A DNA stretch of 64,000 nt from Promethearchaeota archaeon (lineage in GTDB: Archaea; Asgardarchaeota; Lokiarchaeia; Sigyniarchaeales; SOKP01). The stretch is taken from NCBI GenBank assembly GCA_016839705.1, contig JAEOTR010000057.1:32001-96000 (forward strand), read 5' to 3'. Numbering within the stretch: position 1 is the first letter of the stretch; each line of letters begins with the position of its first letter. The notes below the pieces were generated by a model that was given only the letters and a program-made list of their open reading frames with translations, did no database searches and was not told where the DNA came from. This document shows, piece after piece, positions 47,221-53,519 of the stretch. Made by a program: the position numbers and the translations under genes.

Positions 47221-48027
47221 ATGCCAATACTAGGAATAGATTATGAAAAATGTAATGACTGTCAAATTTGCTATAATGCATGCTATAGATATTTCAGACG
47301 TGATAAAGAATTAAATAAAATGGTATTTGAAGATCCTAATAATCTTTGTGATTCATGCGGGCGTTGCATAGCAAGGTGTAAATCGGATGCGATTTTGTAT
47401 GAAAACTTTGGGGAATTCTTAACTTTTGAAGAAGCTCAAAATCCTAGTACATTAATATCATACGATAATATGCATAAATTTATGAGTGCTAAGCGTTCAA
47501 TTAGGGGATTCAAAAAGAAAAAAGTTCCAAAAGCTGATTTAAAAAAAGTCTTGGACACTATGAAATATGCCCCTACAGGAGCTAACATCCGAACTTTAGA
47601 ATGTACTATAATTTCAGATAATGAAAAAATCAAAGAATTATCAGGAGTGGTTATGGACGCAATAATAGCTTCACGCCTTCCAAGGTATTATGAAAATTTC
47701 ATAAAGGCTAAGAAATATGGGATAGATACAATTTTTCATAATGCCCCTCATGTAATGATTATACACTCAGAAAATCCTGGAGATGCCATGAATTCTACAA
47801 TAGCCCTGACATATGGAATGCTATGTGCGCAAACTTTAGGACTGGGAAGTTGTTGGATTGGATTAGCTCATGGAGTTCTTTCATCGAGTAAAGAAATACA
47901 GGAGAAATATACTGGAATTCAAGGTATTGTATGGGGTGTAATAATTATCGGATATCCTACACAAATTTACTATCGAGTACCACCACGTCCAGACATAAAA
48001 ACTAAAGGATTAGAGGAACTAGAATAA
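47221..48027 (+). CDS. Nitroreductase family protein with N-terminal ferredoxin
   Basis: CNDCQICYNAC, CDSCGRCIARC; KRSIRGF, APTGAN, LGLGSCWIG, IGYP. Confidence 0.9.
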   Translation: MPILGIDYEKCNDCQICYNACYRYFRRDKELNKMVFEDPNNLCDSCGRCIARCKSDAILYENFGEFLTFEEAQNPSTLISYDNMHKFMSAKRSIRGFKKKKVPKADLKKVLDTMKYAPTGANIRTLECTIISDNEKIKELSGVVMDAIIASRLPRYYENFIKAKKYGIDTIFHNAPHVMIIHSENPGDAMNSTIALTYGMLCAQTLGLGSCWIGLAHGVLSSSKEIQEKYTGIQGIVWGVIIIGYPTQIYYRVPPRPDIKTKGLEELE

Positions 48028-48060
48028 ATTGTAAATTAATTTATCGAATATTGAAAAAAT

Positions 48061-48429
48061 ATGGTAGAATTCTGTCCTGAATGTGGGAATTTGTTAAGGA
48101 GAAAAACCTGCAGATGTGGGTATGGAGAACCAGAAGGAATCACTAAAGATGCATCTTACAATCATATGAAAAAAATCTGGGATCCCCCCTCTCCTAATAA
48201 CATATACTGCAAAATAACAGCTACTCCTTATGATAAACTTAAATCTATGCTAAATAAAGGGAATATTCCCGAAAAATTAAAGGAAGTAAGAGAGAATATA
48301 AAATCTCATCTTTATTCGTGTAGTAACTGTCTTTATTATCATGGGGATATATTTCTTTGTAAATTTAAAAATAAATACTTAACAAAAGATTCCATCTGTA
48401 GGAGTTTTGAACCCTATTCAGATAACTAA
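48061..48429 (+). CDS. Zinc-ribbon protein (RpoM-like N-terminus plus second Cys cluster)
   Basis: EFCPECGNLL..CRCGY; C-terminal CSNCLYY...C...C. Confidence 0.7.
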   Translation: MVEFCPECGNLLRRKTCRCGYGEPEGITKDASYNHMKKIWDPPSPNNIYCKITATPYDKLKSMLNKGNIPEKLKEVRENIKSHLYSCSNCLYYHGDIFLCKFKNKYLTKDSICRSFEPYSDN

Positions 48430-48454
48430 TTTCTGAGCCTTTAAGCAACTTGTA

Positions 48455-48487
48455 TTGTTCGAAAAGTGGACTTTAAACCTTTAAATA
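48455..48487 (+). promoter_or_regulatory. Conserved operator + BRE/TATA element, copy 1
   Basis: TTGTTCGAAAAGTGGACTTTAAACCTTTAAATA; TATA at 48480. Confidence 0.8.
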
Positions 48488-48531
48488 TAATAAAAATAAT
48501 TAAAAACAAAATTGTGAAGGAAAATCATATT

Positions 48532-49044
48532 ATGAAAGAAATTAAAAAATTAGTGTGGATTTTTCCACTTATTGGTGGAATTATAACACTTATCGCTTTA
48601 TTAACTCCCGCCGCATATTTTATTTATCGATCACCATCCTTTACTAGTGATTTTTATCTTTGGATGTGTAATTTATATTTTTCTCATAGGTTTGAATTTG
48701 GTATTTATACCACGATAATTGAATTTGATACCCAATTAATAGGTCTTATCCCCTCGATTATATTATCGCTAATAATTACAATTTTAAGTATATTAACTAT
48801 TACAACTGCTATTAAATGTAGAAAAGGAACTATGAATATCAATATTAGCTGGATGGTCTCGGCTGTGGTAATAATAATTGCAACAATAATATGGATGATA
48901 ATGATGGAAGTTTCTAGGAGAGTGCTATATGGTCATCAATTTTGGGGGATTTTTAATCCTGGTTTCGGTGTTATTGTCCCATTTATAGGTGCCGGTTTAG
49001 AAATAGTAGGATATATTTTTTTGAAGAAAACATTAAGAAATTGA
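48532..49044 (+). CDS. Four-TM membrane protein
   Basis: Four hydrophobic helices; start moved to ATG 48532 because the ORF-track GTG lies inside the promoter element. Confidence 0.75.
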   Translation: MKEIKKLVWIFPLIGGIITLIALLTPAAYFIYRSPSFTSDFYLWMCNLYFSHRFEFGIYTTIIEFDTQLIGLIPSIILSLIITILSILTITTAIKCRKGTMNINISWMVSAVVIIIATIIWMIMMEVSRRVLYGHQFWGIFNPGFGVIVPFIGAGLEIVGYIFLKKTLRN

Positions 49045-49110
49045 TAAGCTATCCAATCGTTAATCCTGCAGATTCTATATATAGATGTTTTTAACTTTAA
49101 GTATCTTGTT

Positions 49111-49143
49111 TTGTTCGAAAAGTGCACCTTAAACCTTTATATA
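49111..49143 (+). promoter_or_regulatory. Conserved operator + BRE/TATA element, copy 2
   Basis: TTGTTCGAAAAGTGCACCTTAAACCTTTATATA; TATA at 49136. Confidence 0.8.
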
Positions 49144-49200
49144 CTTTCTTTATAGGTTTGATATAATTTTAAACAAAATAAAAAATTTCAATTAATTCTA

Positions 49201-50808
49201 ATGAAAATCTTTAAAGAAAGAGTTGGAAAATATTACATTCTTTTAACTGTAATTTTTAACCTATTATTCCTAACCGGATTGCTTAATTCAGCAAGTTCAG
49301 TAAAAGAGAATGCCAAACCATATCTTTATTGTTCATATTTCGGAGGATCAGAAAAAGATATTATTACAGGAATGGCTATTGATTCAACGGGTAATGTTGT
49401 TGTAGTGGGTGGAACATTTTCAACAGACCTTGTCGTTCTTAATGGGTTCCAAGAAGAATATGGAGGGGGTTCAAGTGATAATAATCATGAGAACGGAGGA
49501 GATGGATTTGTAGCAAAAATCTCTCCTTCTGGAGACTTAATTTGGGGGACTTACTTGGGTGGAAATGATTTGGATTGTTGTAATGATGTGATAGTTGATC
49601 ATGAGGATAATATCTTAGTTATAGGAAAAACAACATCTGAAAATTTTCCCACAATTGGTAATGCCCTAAAAAAAGAGTTCAGTGGTACCACTGATGGATT
49701 CATTTCAAAATTTTTGTCAAACGGATCCTTAATTTATTCAACATACATCGGGGAAGATGGTGCTGAAAATTTAGTAGATCTCATTGAAGATAAATTTGGT
49801 AATATTATGATAGTTGGGGCGTCTGGATCCTCGAATTTCACCACCACTTTAAATGCTCCTCAGCCAATATTTGGGGGTGTTTTTGATACAATTGTTCTTA
49901 ATTTGTCCCATAACTGTTCGGATATCCTTTTTAGCACATTTTTAGGTGGCAACCGAGGAGATGGTGGTTATAACATTGCATTAGATTATGAAAATAACAT
50001 AATAATAACAGGATATACGTTGAGTGATGATTTTCCCTTAAAAAATCCCTTACAAGATGAAATTTTGGGTGATCAGAGAGAAATCTTTGTCACAAAATTC
50101 AATTCTACCGGTCAAATTATATTTTCAACATATCTCGGGGGAAGCTCATTTGAGGATTCCTTTGGATTGACAGTTAATGCATCAGGAAATATTATTATTT
50201 CCGGGAGAACTGCATCTGATGATTATCCCACGGAAAAAGGTTTACAAAATAATTATTCAGGTGGAGTAGATGCAATTATTTCGATTATAAGTCCTGATGG
50301 TCAGACCCTCGAATATTCAACTTTTCTCGGAGGAAATGGTTGGGACACATTGCATCAAGTAGCTGTTAACTCTTCGAATTCTTTATATGCATGTGGAATC
50401 GGAAGTGGGTTTCCTACAAAAAAGCCATTTCAAAATGGTGTAGCAGGTGGATCAGATTTAGTAATAATGCAATTTTCTCCTGGAAATCATGTGGAACTTT
50501 GCACTTATTTCGGAGGAACTGGGGAAGAATGTCCATATTCTATGAATTTTTATAATACGTCCTTATATATCGCAGGACTTACAAATTCAGAATCACTATT
50601 TATCAGCAAAGACGCCTTTCAAGACAACTATGGAGGAAATACTGACGGATTCATTCTAATAATTGACATCCCCTCTTATTTAGCTTTGGTAGACTCCTTT
50701 CAAATCTTCAATCTAGGTTTAATTCTCACTATAATGATCCCAATTTCTCTGATTGCAGTGACAGGTACTGTTTTTCTTATCCGCAAATATAGAAGGGGAA
50801 TTAGTTAA
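49201..50808 (+). CDS. Membrane-anchored SBBP-type beta-propeller repeat surface protein
   Basis: Signal peptide; repeats of STYLGG..D....D..GN....G.T.S.DFP...Q....G..D.F..K; C-terminal TM plus RKYRR. Confidence 0.88.
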   Translation: MKIFKERVGKYYILLTVIFNLLFLTGLLNSASSVKENAKPYLYCSYFGGSEKDIITGMAIDSTGNVVVVGGTFSTDLVVLNGFQEEYGGGSSDNNHENGGDGFVAKISPSGDLIWGTYLGGNDLDCCNDVIVDHEDNILVIGKTTSENFPTIGNALKKEFSGTTDGFISKFLSNGSLIYSTYIGEDGAENLVDLIEDKFGNIMIVGASGSSNFTTTLNAPQPIFGGVFDTIVLNLSHNCSDILFSTFLGGNRGDGGYNIALDYENNIIITGYTLSDDFPLKNPLQDEILGDQREIFVTKFNSTGQIIFSTYLGGSSFEDSFGLTVNASGNIIISGRTASDDYPTEKGLQNNYSGGVDAIISIISPDGQTLEYSTFLGGNGWDTLHQVAVNSSNSLYACGIGSGFPTKKPFQNGVAGGSDLVIMQFSPGNHVELCTYFGGTGEECPYSMNFYNTSLYIAGLTNSESLFISKDAFQDNYGGNTDGFILIIDIPSYLALVDSFQIFNLGLILTIMIPISLIAVTGTVFLIRKYRRGIS

Positions 50809-50866
50809 AATTTGGCAGTTCATAAATTTTATTTCTAAAATTTTTTTTTCTTTAGCATTACTTAAA

Positions 50867-50899
50867 TTGTACGAAAACTGCACCTTAAAGCTTTATATA
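50867..50899 (+). promoter_or_regulatory. Conserved operator + BRE/TATA element, copy 3
   Basis: TTGTACGAAAACTGCACCTTAAAGCTTTATATA; TATA at 50892. Confidence 0.8.
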
Positions 50900-50952
50900 C
50901 AGTGTTGTTTCTCATTATATAACTATAATCAAAAGTTAAAGTGTGTAAGTGA

Positions 50953-51549
50953 ATGAACCTAAAAAGAGTTAATATTAAAAATAATATTATTTCATTTTCT
51001 ACCAGTATTTCTTCTTTTTTAATTCCGATTTTCCAATACGTACCATGTACTGGTGTATGGTTTGGGATAATGAGTATACCATTGATATATTATCTGGGTT
51101 TCTTTTTTCAAAATCCTGGAATTGCCTCTTCAGATATTCAATTCTTAATCAGAAACAATGGATTCTACGTTGTACTATTTGGTTTCATTATTTACATCTA
51201 TTCTTTAATATATCAATTAACTCATAGAAAGCAATTGATGCAGACTGGACCCTATAAATATGTGAGACATCCTCAATATATTGCTTTTATTATCATGACT
51301 TTAGGATTAACTATAATTACTTTTGACACAAGTCCAATTTTCAATTTTAATATTGGTAATCTTAACGGATTTACCATTATATTAATTATTTGGATTGGTG
51401 AAGTGATTGCGTATATTGTTTTAGGAAAGATTGAAGAAATTGCCTTAAAAGCTAAATATGGTGATCAATTCTTAAAGTATGCAAGCGAAGTACCATTTAT
51501 GGTCCCATTCTTAAAATTAAAAAGGAATGAAATTAAGAAAAATAATTGA
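50953..51549 (+). CDS. Isoprenylcysteine carboxyl methyltransferase / PEMT family membrane methyltransferase
   Basis: LMQTGPYKYVRHPQY and IEEIALKAKYGDQFLKYASEVPFMVP signature motifs. Confidence 0.88.
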   Translation: MNLKRVNIKNNIISFSTSISSFLIPIFQYVPCTGVWFGIMSIPLIYYLGFFFQNPGIASSDIQFLIRNNGFYVVLFGFIIYIYSLIYQLTHRKQLMQTGPYKYVRHPQYIAFIIMTLGLTIITFDTSPIFNFNIGNLNGFTIILIIWIGEVIAYIVLGKIEEIALKAKYGDQFLKYASEVPFMVPFLKLKRNEIKKNN

Positions 51550-51579
51550 TAACAACATATTGAAAAATTTAATAATAAT

Positions 51580-52284
51580 ATGAAAACTAAAAATGCTAAA
51601 ATTTTACATTTTTTTAGATTTACACTAATTTTATTATCTCTTGCTTTTCTATCAATTGTCTTATATTTAGTTTTCTCTTATGAAATTCCGTTTTTTGATC
51701 CTACAATAAATACCATTAAATTTGTCATAATTGTTCTTTTAATACCACTATTAGCATTTATAACTATTTTAGCTGCTCTTACAATCAAAGAATACAAGGC
51801 CTATTTTGTGAGGAGAACTCATATTAAACAGGGAAGATCCTATCTGACCCTTACTGATATTTTTGAAAATGAAAACCGTATAAATCTCATAAATCAAATC
51901 CTAAGGAATCCCGGTATTCATCATAACGAATTACTACGAAAATGTGAATTACAAAAAGGACAATTACAATATCATTTAGATATCTTATTAAAGTACAACA
52001 TTATAAAAAAGGAAAAATATGGGCAATTTACAATTTATTTTCCGATTACAACATCATTTGATGCAGAAGAGTATTTAGAAAATCTTATCGCAAAATCAAA
52101 AACCACTTCAGAAATCTTGAATATTATTAAAAAAACTCCCGGAATTAATTCTTCTGAAATATCACGAATTCTGAATATTTCTCGTAATACTGTGAAATAT
52201 CACATTGATAAATTATCACAAGAAAAGCTAGTAAAATTAACTAAAAAAGGTCGCACAATAGAATTATATCCTATTCTTAATTAA
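51580..52284 (+). CDS. Membrane-anchored transcriptional regulator with two winged-HTH domains (COG3398-like)
   Basis: Two N-terminal TM helices; NPGIHHNEL...LQYHLDIL and TPGINSSEISRILNISRNTVKYHIDKL. Confidence 0.88.
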   Translation: MKTKNAKILHFFRFTLILLSLAFLSIVLYLVFSYEIPFFDPTINTIKFVIIVLLIPLLAFITILAALTIKEYKAYFVRRTHIKQGRSYLTLTDIFENENRINLINQILRNPGIHHNELLRKCELQKGQLQYHLDILLKYNIIKKEKYGQFTIYFPITTSFDAEEYLENLIAKSKTTSEILNIIKKTPGINSSEISRILNISRNTVKYHIDKLSQEKLVKLTKKGRTIELYPILN

Positions 52285-52391
52285 TTAGATATTCTTATTC
52301 TATTTTAATATCTAGAAAGATCTATAATAGACTTATCATTAATTTACTTACTTGATTCAATTTAGGATATAGCTCAAGGTTTAAAGAAATT

Positions 52392-53519
52392 ATGAATGCA
52401 CATGAAAGAGTAATAAAAACGTTAAATCATGAAGAACCTGATCGAGTACCTCTTTTCTGTCAAGCAATAATGCCTGGATTCGAAAGAAATCTGATTAAAT
52501 ATTGGGGTAATGAATATAAGCATGATGAGAGATATGTTTTATATTTTAGTGATTATAACCTTCATAGAAAATTAGGTTTTGATCTTTGCTGGGGATTTGG
52601 TGTAGTTCCCGCCAAATTACCACGAAACTTTTTAAAAGATAACCCAACTCCACAATTAGATGATCCAAATAAAATTATTGATATTGATGGTAGGGTTTAC
52701 TTAAGAAATCCTGAATTCAATGTACCTTGGTATTATGAAAACTATATTACAACAGAAGAAATGGCAGATTATTTTTATGACAGATACTATTCAATAGAAT
52801 GGGAAGAAAACTCTAATTTTATACCAAAGCTCAATAAGACTTTAAGCAAATATCCCCTAGATGAGATTGTTCCTTGTACTCACATAAACAGTATTTTAGA
52901 ACCTATTTGGGAAGGTTTAGGATTATCTTTATTTACGAAGTTATTAAGAAAAAAAAGATCTAAACTCAAAAAATACATTGATTTAAGAACAAAAATCTCA
53001 GTAAAGGGAGCAAAAGTGTTAGCAGAAACTGATTTTGACGTTTTCTTTCTATGTGATGACACAGCGTTTAAAAATAGAACAATGATTAATCCTAAAGACC
53101 ATCGAGAACTAATTATTCCTGCTTATAAGAAGATTCTTCATGAGTTAAATAAAGCAGGAAAATATGCGATTTTTCATTCAGATGGTTATACTGAACCCTA
53201 CTTTGATGGGTTGATTGAGGCAGGATTTAAAGGGGTTGAATCTTTAGAACCAATGGCGGGCATGAATTTAAAACATTTAAAGGACACATATGGGGATAAA
53301 CTCTGTTTAATTGGGAATATAGATGTTTCAAAACTTTTACCTTTCGGCACAACAGATGAAGTTACACAATCAGTAAAAAAATGTATAAAAGATGCCGGTG
53401 AAGGTGGAGGATATATGCTGAGCGCCTGTACAGATATAACGAATGCATGTAAACTTGAAAATATTTTTACTATGATTTCTGCCACAAAGAAATATGGGAA
53501 ATATCCACTAAAATTATGA
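52392..53519 (+). CDS. Uroporphyrinogen decarboxylase / MtaA-CmuA methylcobalamin methyltransferase family
   Basis: ERV..TLNHEEPDRVP, DDTA, FHSDG, LEPMAGM, LIGNID, GGGYMLS. Confidence 0.88.
   Translation: MNAHERVIKTLNHEEPDRVPLFCQAIMPGFERNLIKYWGNEYKHDERYVLYFSDYNLHRKLGFDLCWGFGVVPAKLPRNFLKDNPTPQLDDPNKIIDIDGRVYLRNPEFNVPWYYENYITTEEMADYFYDRYYSIEWEENSNFIPKLNKTLSKYPLDEIVPCTHINSILEPIWEGLGLSLFTKLLRKKRSKLKKYIDLRTKISVKGAKVLAETDFDVFFLCDDTAFKNRTMINPKDHRELIIPAYKKILHELNKAGKYAIFHSDGYTEPYFDGLIEAGFKGVESLEPMAGMNLKHLKDTYGDKLCLIGNIDVSKLLPFGTTDEVTQSVKKCIKDAGEGGGYMLSACTDITNACKLENIFTMISATKKYGKYPLKL

Follow-up and report, generated by a model that had tools for sequence, protein, structure and literature searches.

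The window analyzed here is a stretch of 64,000 nucleotides (nt) from the genome of a Promethearchaeota archaeon of the Lokiarchaeia (assembly GCA_016839705.1, contig JAEOTR010000057.1, positions 32,001 to 96,000), and it contains three adjacent promoters which share one operator. The operator core TGTTCKAWAAGTGSACC is 17 bp long and is held 7 bp upstream of the TATA box. The gene at 51580-52284, located behind the third operator copy, encodes a predicted transmembrane (TM) regulator with two winged helix-turn-helix (wHTH) domains, and this protein probably reads the operator, whatever the sign of its effect. That the shared promoter element and the TM-wHTH regulator tied to it constitute a regulon is well supported by genome comparisons. 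Since the regulator lies in the operon behind copy C, autoregulation is implied by the gene arrangement. The features of the locus, all on the plus strand, are as follows:

48456..48472, +, operator copy A, 17-nt core TGTTCGAAAAGTGGACT
48475-48477, +, AAA resembling a B recognition element (BRE), copy A
48480-48487, +, TATA box of copy A
48532..49044, +, gene for a 4-TM protein (170 aa, four hydrophobic segments)
49112..49128, +, operator copy B, TGTTCGAAAAGTGCACC, identical to the genus consensus; TATA box at 49136-49143
49201..50808, +, gene for an SBBP beta-propeller protein (535 aa; PF06739)
50868..50884, +, operator copy C, TGTACGAAAACTGCACC; TATA box at 50892-50899
50953..51549, +, gene for a membrane methyltransferase of the ICMT/PEMT superfamily (198 aa)
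51580..52284, +, gene for the TM regulator (234 aa; PF24266 and HTH_24)

Operator copies in the window and in the genome

A degenerate 33-mer matched the plus strand of the window at positions 48455, 49111 and 50867 with 0 mismatches. No further match with 3 or fewer mismatches was found in the window, and 100 shuffles gave 0. The scan was extended to the whole genome assembly (3.36 Mb, 97 contigs, 31% G+C, 93% complete; the window lies on contig C46), where every other position was at least 8 mismatches away from the 33-mer. For the 17-nt core, 38 places with at most 3 mismatches were found in the genome, and a TATA box follows only the three window copies.

The initial annotation of this DNA had described three identically spaced motif copies, each with a TATA box exactly 25 bp after the motif start and each located 45-58 bp before a gene. 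This geometry was reproduced in full, with 0 copies expected by chance according to the shuffles. The TATA box starts 25 nt past the start of the 33-mer in all three copies, and the distance between the end of the 33-mer and the ATG was found to be 45, 58 and 54 nt for copies A, B and C, respectively. A CTT upstream of each copy, also described there, was found at all three local sites but lacks conservation in other species.

Copy C is the promoter of the methyltransferase-regulator operon. The regulator gene starts 30 nt past the end of the methyltransferase gene; this gap is too short for a BRE and TATA box of its own plus a leader, so both genes most likely form one transcript. No Rfam match was found in positions 48000-52600 and therefore the element is not a known RNA.

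Two further observations were made on the promoter regions. A run of nine T residues is located at 50841-50849, between the SBBP gene and copy C. In addition, a stretch A(A/T)CAAAA is common to the three local promoters (48504-48511, 49171-49178 and 50927-50935), 25-29 nt before the start codon and at a variable distance from the TATA box. It may be a leader feature or a chance occurrence in AT-rich DNA.

Conservation of the operator across Lokiarchaeia

Relatives were searched with the 21-nt core pattern TGTTCKAWAAGTGSACCTYAA, allowing at most 1 mismatch, and the reversed pattern was used as a control. The pattern could be identified in 47 of the 54 genomes of the genus, with 1-4 copies each. 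Among 151 sampled genomes of the order it was present in 67, all within the window's family, f1. By genus, these are 46 of 52 genomes in g1, 17 of 42 in g14 and single genomes of g12, g13 and g21. None of the 19 genomes of the other three families of the order contained the pattern, and the reversed pattern gave 0 hits in both the 54 genus genomes and the 151 order genomes.

From 60 fetched loci, 84 full-length sites were compiled, in which the near-invariance of positions 1-21 is partly built in by the search pattern. Positions 22-32 lie outside the pattern; they comprise an A-rich BRE-like stretch and the motif TTTAWAA, with the same spacing in 84 of 84 sites. The flanks past about −8 and +33 carry little information. 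Within the genus, 31 loci have the operator 71-105 nt (mostly 83-85 nt) ahead of the methyltransferase start, and the regulator gene comes next, often overlapping. In three genomes (G023, G021 and G053) the regulator gene is located directly behind the operator, with no methyltransferase gene between them.

For the other genera, 20 loci with regulator orthologues of 41-60% identity were fetched, 18 of them with upstream DNA. A variant operator with 1-4 mismatches was found in all 18, at the same spot before the methyltransferase-regulator operon. The family-level consensus is TGTT.gAaAAGTGcACC, followed by a fixed 7-nt gap to TTTAWAA, and the positions T3, A7, A10, A15, C16 and C17 are invariant in these 18 loci. 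Altogether, about 50 orthologous loci, which represent at least 6 genera, have the operator ahead of the methyltransferase-regulator operon. Across the family, the sites precede TATA boxes and are linked to the TM-wHTH gene, in line with the regulon proposed in the initial annotation.

The distance between the end of the operator and the TATA box was 7 bp in all 84 genus sites and in all 18 family sites, which agrees with the earlier placement of the element just upstream of the BRE and TATA box. In the genus sites, conservation continues into the BRE (C16 C17 T18 T19). Outside the genus, the 7 gap positions (18-24) are not conserved, so the operator proper is 17 bp in length and abuts the BRE but does not overlap it.

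Generic promoters of the same AT-rich genome were used for comparison, by aligning TATA-like octamers before approximately 1,700 crude gene calls, an alignment that suffices for position specificity but not for rating promoter strength. These showed no more than a weak excess of A at −5 to −3 relative to the TATA box. This generic signal lacks the C16 C17 T18 T19 and C24 seen in the genus sites, and the operator-specific positions 1-17 end where the generic BRE-like A-rich stretch begins. A variant operator of genus g9 was found almost exclusively ahead of the regulator homologue; it was rejected as independent evidence, since the three genomes concerned are too alike at this place.

The regulator and its link to the operator

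The regulator matches the Pfam families PF24266 (73.8 bits, cut-off 31, E 1.2e-20) and HTH_24 (57.9 bits, cut-off 21.9, E 7e-16). An AlphaFold2 model based on 27 orthologues (mean pLDDT 73.6, pTM 0.34) contains two long hydrophobic helices at residues 2-32 and 41-82, which are predicted to be transmembrane. These are followed by wHTH1 (91-152, PF24266), a low-confidence linker and wHTH2 (162-231, HTH_24). Basic residues are located on the N-terminal side of the predicted hairpin and after helix 2, and its loop of about 12 residues is acidic to neutral; this charge distribution would place both DNA-binding domains in the cytoplasm. With predicted TM segments and a DNA-binding domain in one polypeptide, the modeled protein fits the definition of a transmembrane transcription regulator (TTR). 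Across the 27 orthologues, hardly any change occurs in the recognition helices LQKGQLQWHLDVLLK and RNTVKYHIDKL; this matches the constancy of the operator. The TM part varies.

The wHTH domains score best against models of ArsR/SmtB and SdpR-type autorepressors, with values below the cut-offs. By sequence, the only PDB match of the regulator was a marginal hit to a single wHTH domain (5duk). The best Foldseek matches of the predicted cytoplasmic part were the tandem winged-helix proteins ScpB, RPC34 and PF0095 of P. furiosus (3w6j, 8iue and 2quf; E ~1e-4), in addition to single ArsR-type domains. TM-scores of 0.2-0.35 limit the resemblance to the former to the overall fold, and it is uncertain how the two domains of the model are oriented to each other (pTM 0.34).

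The regulator family comprises more than 500 sequence clusters, annotated just as "winged helix-turn-helix transcriptional regulator". All source names on these clusters are Asgard metagenome-assembled genomes or marine sediment metagenome. A paralogue in the same genome (C82:76723-77982) carries an extracellular domain of about 200 aa between two TM helices. The TM-hairpin/double-wHTH architecture is thus a general sensor scaffold, of which the window protein has a minimal loop, and it seems to have radiated with different sensor parts. No TGTTC-type element was found upstream of the paralogue. It had been considered as a methyltransferase fusion, but carries the extracellular domain instead. 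In genus g12, regulator forms lie in open frames of about 770 aa.

The pairing of regulator and operator was also followed through genomes that lack the regulator. In genus g14, the sites are absent from 9 of 10 regulator-less genomes. The regulator-less genome G004 (95% complete) contains no operator site, and in G005 (100% complete, also regulator-less) only a relic of the operon promoter was found, with a G11-to-A change at the near-invariant G11 (L076:1501-1700, G005:C8). An ATG is located in this relic at the orthologous methyltransferase start position, and neither a methyltransferase nor a regulator gene follows. For the regulator-operator pairing, sites unlinked to the operon are more telling than the operon linkage.

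Symmetry of the operator

In the initial annotation, the core GTnC-N7-GnAC had been interpreted as a 15-bp quasi-palindrome. This interpretation could not be upheld. Only 3 of 8 mirrored positions are complementary, compared to about 2 expected by chance, and the positions of the supposed spacer (A7, A9, A10, G11 and T12) are among the best conserved, with at least 98% each except for G11 (94%). Judged from the aligned sites, the operator looks asymmetric. Such a site would suit one protein whose two non-identical winged helices enter two major grooves about 10 bp apart.

In G147, with a regulator of 41% identity, the operator of the operon (L138 around 3261, G147:C43) is AGTTCGAAAACCGAACC, a perfect GTTCG-N5-CGAAC dyad, and from this dyad the regulator may have had a dimeric ancestor. 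An assignment of the half-sites to the two domains was dropped: family f2 keeps the TGTTC half and the recognition helix of wHTH2, and f1 is most constant in the AAGTGCACC half.

The methyltransferase and its coupling to the regulator

The methyltransferase was matched by the Pfam families ICMT (31.7 bits, cut-off 24) and PEMT (29.6 bits, cut-off 25) with E-values of 2e-07 and 1e-06, respectively. It scores far below the NCBIfam equivalog cut-offs for prenylcysteine, lipid A and methanethiol methyltransferases; for isopcys_mtase, 28 bits were obtained against a cut-off of 160. Membership can therefore be suggested at the level of the ICMT/PEMT superfamily only, to which methyltransferases of lipids and small molecules also belong. 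No variation was found among 29 orthologues in the RHPxY and E-E/D...Y motifs (R105, H106, P107, Y109 and E161). RHPxY and hyd-EE are presumably the binding motifs for the cofactor S-adenosylmethionine.

With the single methyltransferase sequence no match was found in the PDB. The profile of the 29 orthologues matches Ma-ICMT of Methanosarcina acetivorans (4a2n) at E 7e-4, and the (R)HPxY and EE...FG..Y..Y segments are aligned. The likeness to Ma-ICMT lies in these motif segments; the score far below the equivalog cut-off is a difference, and no prenylated substrate is evident here. The co-regulated surface proteins end in a C-terminal TM helix and a basic tail, with no Cys-containing end motif.

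Fusions of the two proteins were found in the congeners G017 and G002, where proteins of 431 and 430 aa carry an ICMT-like domain ahead of the TM hairpin and two winged helices according to Pfam. A third fusion of 441 aa with 54% identity is present in the protein database. Based on the conserved operon and the three natural fusions, the ICMT-like protein is probably not just a target but a partner of the regulator. Co-folding of methyltransferase and regulator, each supplied as an alignment, gave a score of 0.00, which was counted neither for nor against binding.

Several species have two tandem ICMT-like genes (L022:7424-8017 and L022:5998-7290 in G017, L026 in G002, L125 and L140). It is the second of the two that forms the regulator fusion in G017 and G002.

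Target genes behind the operator

For the analysis of the targets, the first open reading frame behind each site was clustered and the representatives were annotated by Pfam. The following classes were obtained:

Methyltransferase/regulator operon, 35 sites
LVIVD propeller of ~360 aa, 14 sites
Radical SAM/SPASM enzyme of 362-378 aa, 11 sites, with a leader of 120-165 nt
Uncharacterized family of ~500 aa (495-535 aa), 6 sites
4-TM protein, 5 sites in 4 genomes
SBBP propeller, 3 sites
Multi-TM protein of ~240 aa, 2 sites

Furthermore, a conserved gene pair encoding proteins of ~81 and 444 aa is located behind the operator in three genomes (L077:1631-3210, L089:2323-3896 and L097:1612-3185). For these two proteins no significant Pfam match was found. 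A hydrophobic segment at the N-terminus and a TM helix plus basic tail at the C-terminus are common to all propellers and to the ~500-aa family.

In the window, the 535-aa SBBP protein matches PF06739 in three stretches (54 bits, cut-off 20.5, E 1.5e-14) and has an N-terminal hydrophobic signal or anchor as well as a C-terminal TM anchor. The 170-aa protein with four hydrophobic segments gave no Pfam match. Taken together with the Pfam assignments of the operon proteins and the model of the regulator, these results agree with the gene identities given in the initial annotation (4-TM protein, SBBP propeller, ICMT/PEMT-type methyltransferase, and a protein with two TM helices and two wHTH domains).

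A self-contained regulon for cell-surface functions had also been proposed. The first part applies to the window's own genome, in which the three adjacent promoters are the whole operator set, but not to relatives, which carry unlinked copies on other contigs before radical SAM/SPASM, LVIVD and other genes. The second part holds for most of the other targets, which encode membrane or surface proteins. Envelope or surface regulon appears to be a fair label on this basis, with the radical SAM enzyme as the exception.

The radical SAM/SPASM genes were found at L021, L079-L083, L086, L093-L095 and L105. Their distance of 120-165 nt between operator and start codon implies a long leader, stretches of which are conserved between species. 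No small open reading frame or known RNA was identified in it.

Upstream of copy A, a ferredoxin-nitroreductase fusion gene and a gene for a 122-aa protein without a Pfam hit are located (window positions 47221-48429). Their position is kept in many relatives, with no operator on them.

Proposed mechanism and alternative explanations

In the proposed mechanism, the three elements are copies of one operator abutting the BRE. The regulator would be tethered by its N-terminal two-helix hairpin, with the tandem ArsR-like winged helices facing the cytoplasm. It would bind beside the BRE and TATA box and control its own operon, shared with the methyltransferase, as well as a small, species-variable set of genes mostly for membrane-anchored surface proteins (here the 4-TM protein and the SBBP propeller). 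Activation would be achieved by helping transcription factor B (TFB) and the TATA-binding protein to bind. The methyltransferase would be the signal-input partner of the regulator, comparable to a co-sensor enzyme. The motif with its fixed geometry and conservation, its link to the regulator gene, the domain architectures and the fusions were observed; in this scheme we infer the binding of the protein to the motif, the sign of regulation, the methyltransferase partnership and the signal.

That the regulator reads the operator and activates from it is favored with some reserve. For the sign taken by itself, activation appears to be the somewhat better choice, repression is a substantial but lesser possibility, and a dual or other effect is improbable. 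The archaeal activators Ptr2 and TFB-RF1 bind just upstream of the BRE, and most characterized archaeal repressor sites are not wholly upstream but overlap the TATA box and BRE or the start site.

Several points weigh against the proposed mechanism. A site abutting the BRE could equally block TFB. A site without a detected regulator was found in four genomes, G019 (92% complete), G064, G122 (79%) and G071 (100%). The linkage of operator and regulator is partly trivial, since the operator precedes the regulator's own operon and loss of the locus removes both. Covariation between operator and recognition helices is uninformative: the operator is near-constant within the family, and the hints from f2 and f1 conflict. 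Finally, the TM hairpin is poorly conserved and, with its outer loop of about 12 residues, is not an obvious sensor.

One alternative keeps the same regulator and operator but assumes an autorepressor, which would bind at the edge of the BRE and exclude TFB until a membrane signal or a methyltransferase-derived signal de-represses the surface-protein genes. It is considered rather unlikely. The conserved block of the genus sites, extending into the BRE positions C16 C17 T18 T19, is in line with it, as are the best scores of the wHTH domains against ArsR/SmtB and SdpR-type autorepressors (below the cut-offs) and TATA boxes near the consensus, which suggest that the promoters may need no help. 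Against this stand the lack of conservation of positions 18-24 outside the genus and an operator which stops 7 bp before the TATA box with no overlap, given that most characterized repressor sites in archaea do overlap the TATA box and BRE or the start site.

It is quite unlikely that the element is read by another protein, either an unlinked factor or a TFB paralogue with an extended promoter element, and that the TM-wHTH gene is just one of its targets. Nine paralogues of TFB (TFIIB family), each about 300 aa long, were found in the genome (e.g., C76:20442-20996, C49:25436-25975 and C73:27200-27748), a large number which could define several promoter classes. The rigid spacing to the TATA box, as expected of a promoter element for a basal factor, and the few genomes having the site without a detected regulator are compatible with such a reader. 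In a preprint, a Sulfolobus TFB paralogue is reported to be associated with a specific promoter set (10.64898/2026.09.06.749720). However, the operator is always present at the regulator's own operon across genera and the sites are absent from nearly all regulator-less genomes. Moreover, the conserved block begins as far as 24 bp ahead of the TATA box, a distance much too long for the helix-turn-helix of TFB, judging from the contacts in TFB-BRE structures.

Residual similarity from a recent local promoter duplication, with no shared regulatory meaning, had been named in the initial annotation as an outcome that would overturn the regulon and can be dismissed: the three local copies do share an upstream CTT which is not conserved in other species, but their similarity ends at about 45-50 nt, the genes behind them are unrelated, and the same 17 nt recur at over 100 sites from over 60 species with regulators of 41-77% identity and unconserved flanking intergenic DNA.

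Comparison with known systems

Regarding the site position relative to the BRE and TATA box, the system resembles Ptr2 and TFB-RF1. These activators are soluble and belong to other families; Ptr2 is of the Lrp type, which the regulator described here is not. By analogy, the regulator may work like Ptr2-type activators although it is not of their family. The concept of a tethered DNA-binding protein with a neighboring membrane partner is shared with CadC-LysP and ToxR-ToxS, bacterial membrane-tethered DNA binders which are set by a partner membrane protein encoded adjacently. CadC and ToxR differ by their OmpR-type domains, their single TM segment and their periplasmic sensor domains. In contrast to the partners in these systems, the putative partner here is an enzyme-like ICMT/PEMT protein, and the partnership is based on operon structure and fusions.

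ArnR has the reverse domain order and a different sensor part. In the regulator of the window, the N-terminal TM hairpin precedes two tandem wHTH domains, a comparison made by architecture only. TTRs are reported to be common in archaea, with about 4 per genome (PMC10269533), and ArnR and ArnR1 of Sulfolobus acidocaldarius control surface structures (PMC6396743). Similar to these, the regulator is a predicted one-component TM and DNA-binding protein which would act from the membrane on promoters of cell-surface genes (PMC10269533; PMC6396743). Neither paper describes an ICMT-like methyltransferase paired with or fused to such a regulator (PMC10269533; PMC6396743), and the text of the TTR survey does not contain the words Asgard or Lokiarchaeota (PMC10269533).

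The regulator belongs to the domain family of HVO_0163-type double-HTH proteins (PF24266 and HTH_24), for which the initial annotation had used the label COG3398. No characterized member of this family was found; the one paper found on HVO_0163 names it in an acetylome list, with no functional information. In the full-text literature searched, no function of an HVO_0163-type protein, no ICMT in Asgard archaea and no Asgard regulon or promoter map was found. The general kind of regulator, the TTR, is known and widespread in archaea (PMC10269533). What is new is the family-wide conservation and geometry of the operator, the variable target set and the fusion-supported coupling to an ICMT-like protein.

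Implications for Lokiarchaeia

A family-wide Lokiarchaeal module can be proposed tentatively, although as a whole it is doubtful. In this module the methyltransferase, in some species fused to the regulator, would provide the input, and a monomeric regulator, with one winged helix per half-site of the asymmetric 17-bp operator, would switch on its own operon and the surface propeller genes. If true, this enzyme-coupled type of transmembrane regulator would be new.

Almost nothing is known about gene regulation in Asgard archaea. A defined 17-bp operator and a candidate binder, the soluble domain of which is accessible to expression with no need to grow the organism, represent a testable regulator-operator pair for this group. 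That the regulator is coupled to an ICMT-like enzyme, in natural fusions as well, suggests an unstudied route by which a membrane or lipid-related signal may enter transcription, and the list of targets points to surface proteins whose expression Lokiarchaeia adjust together.

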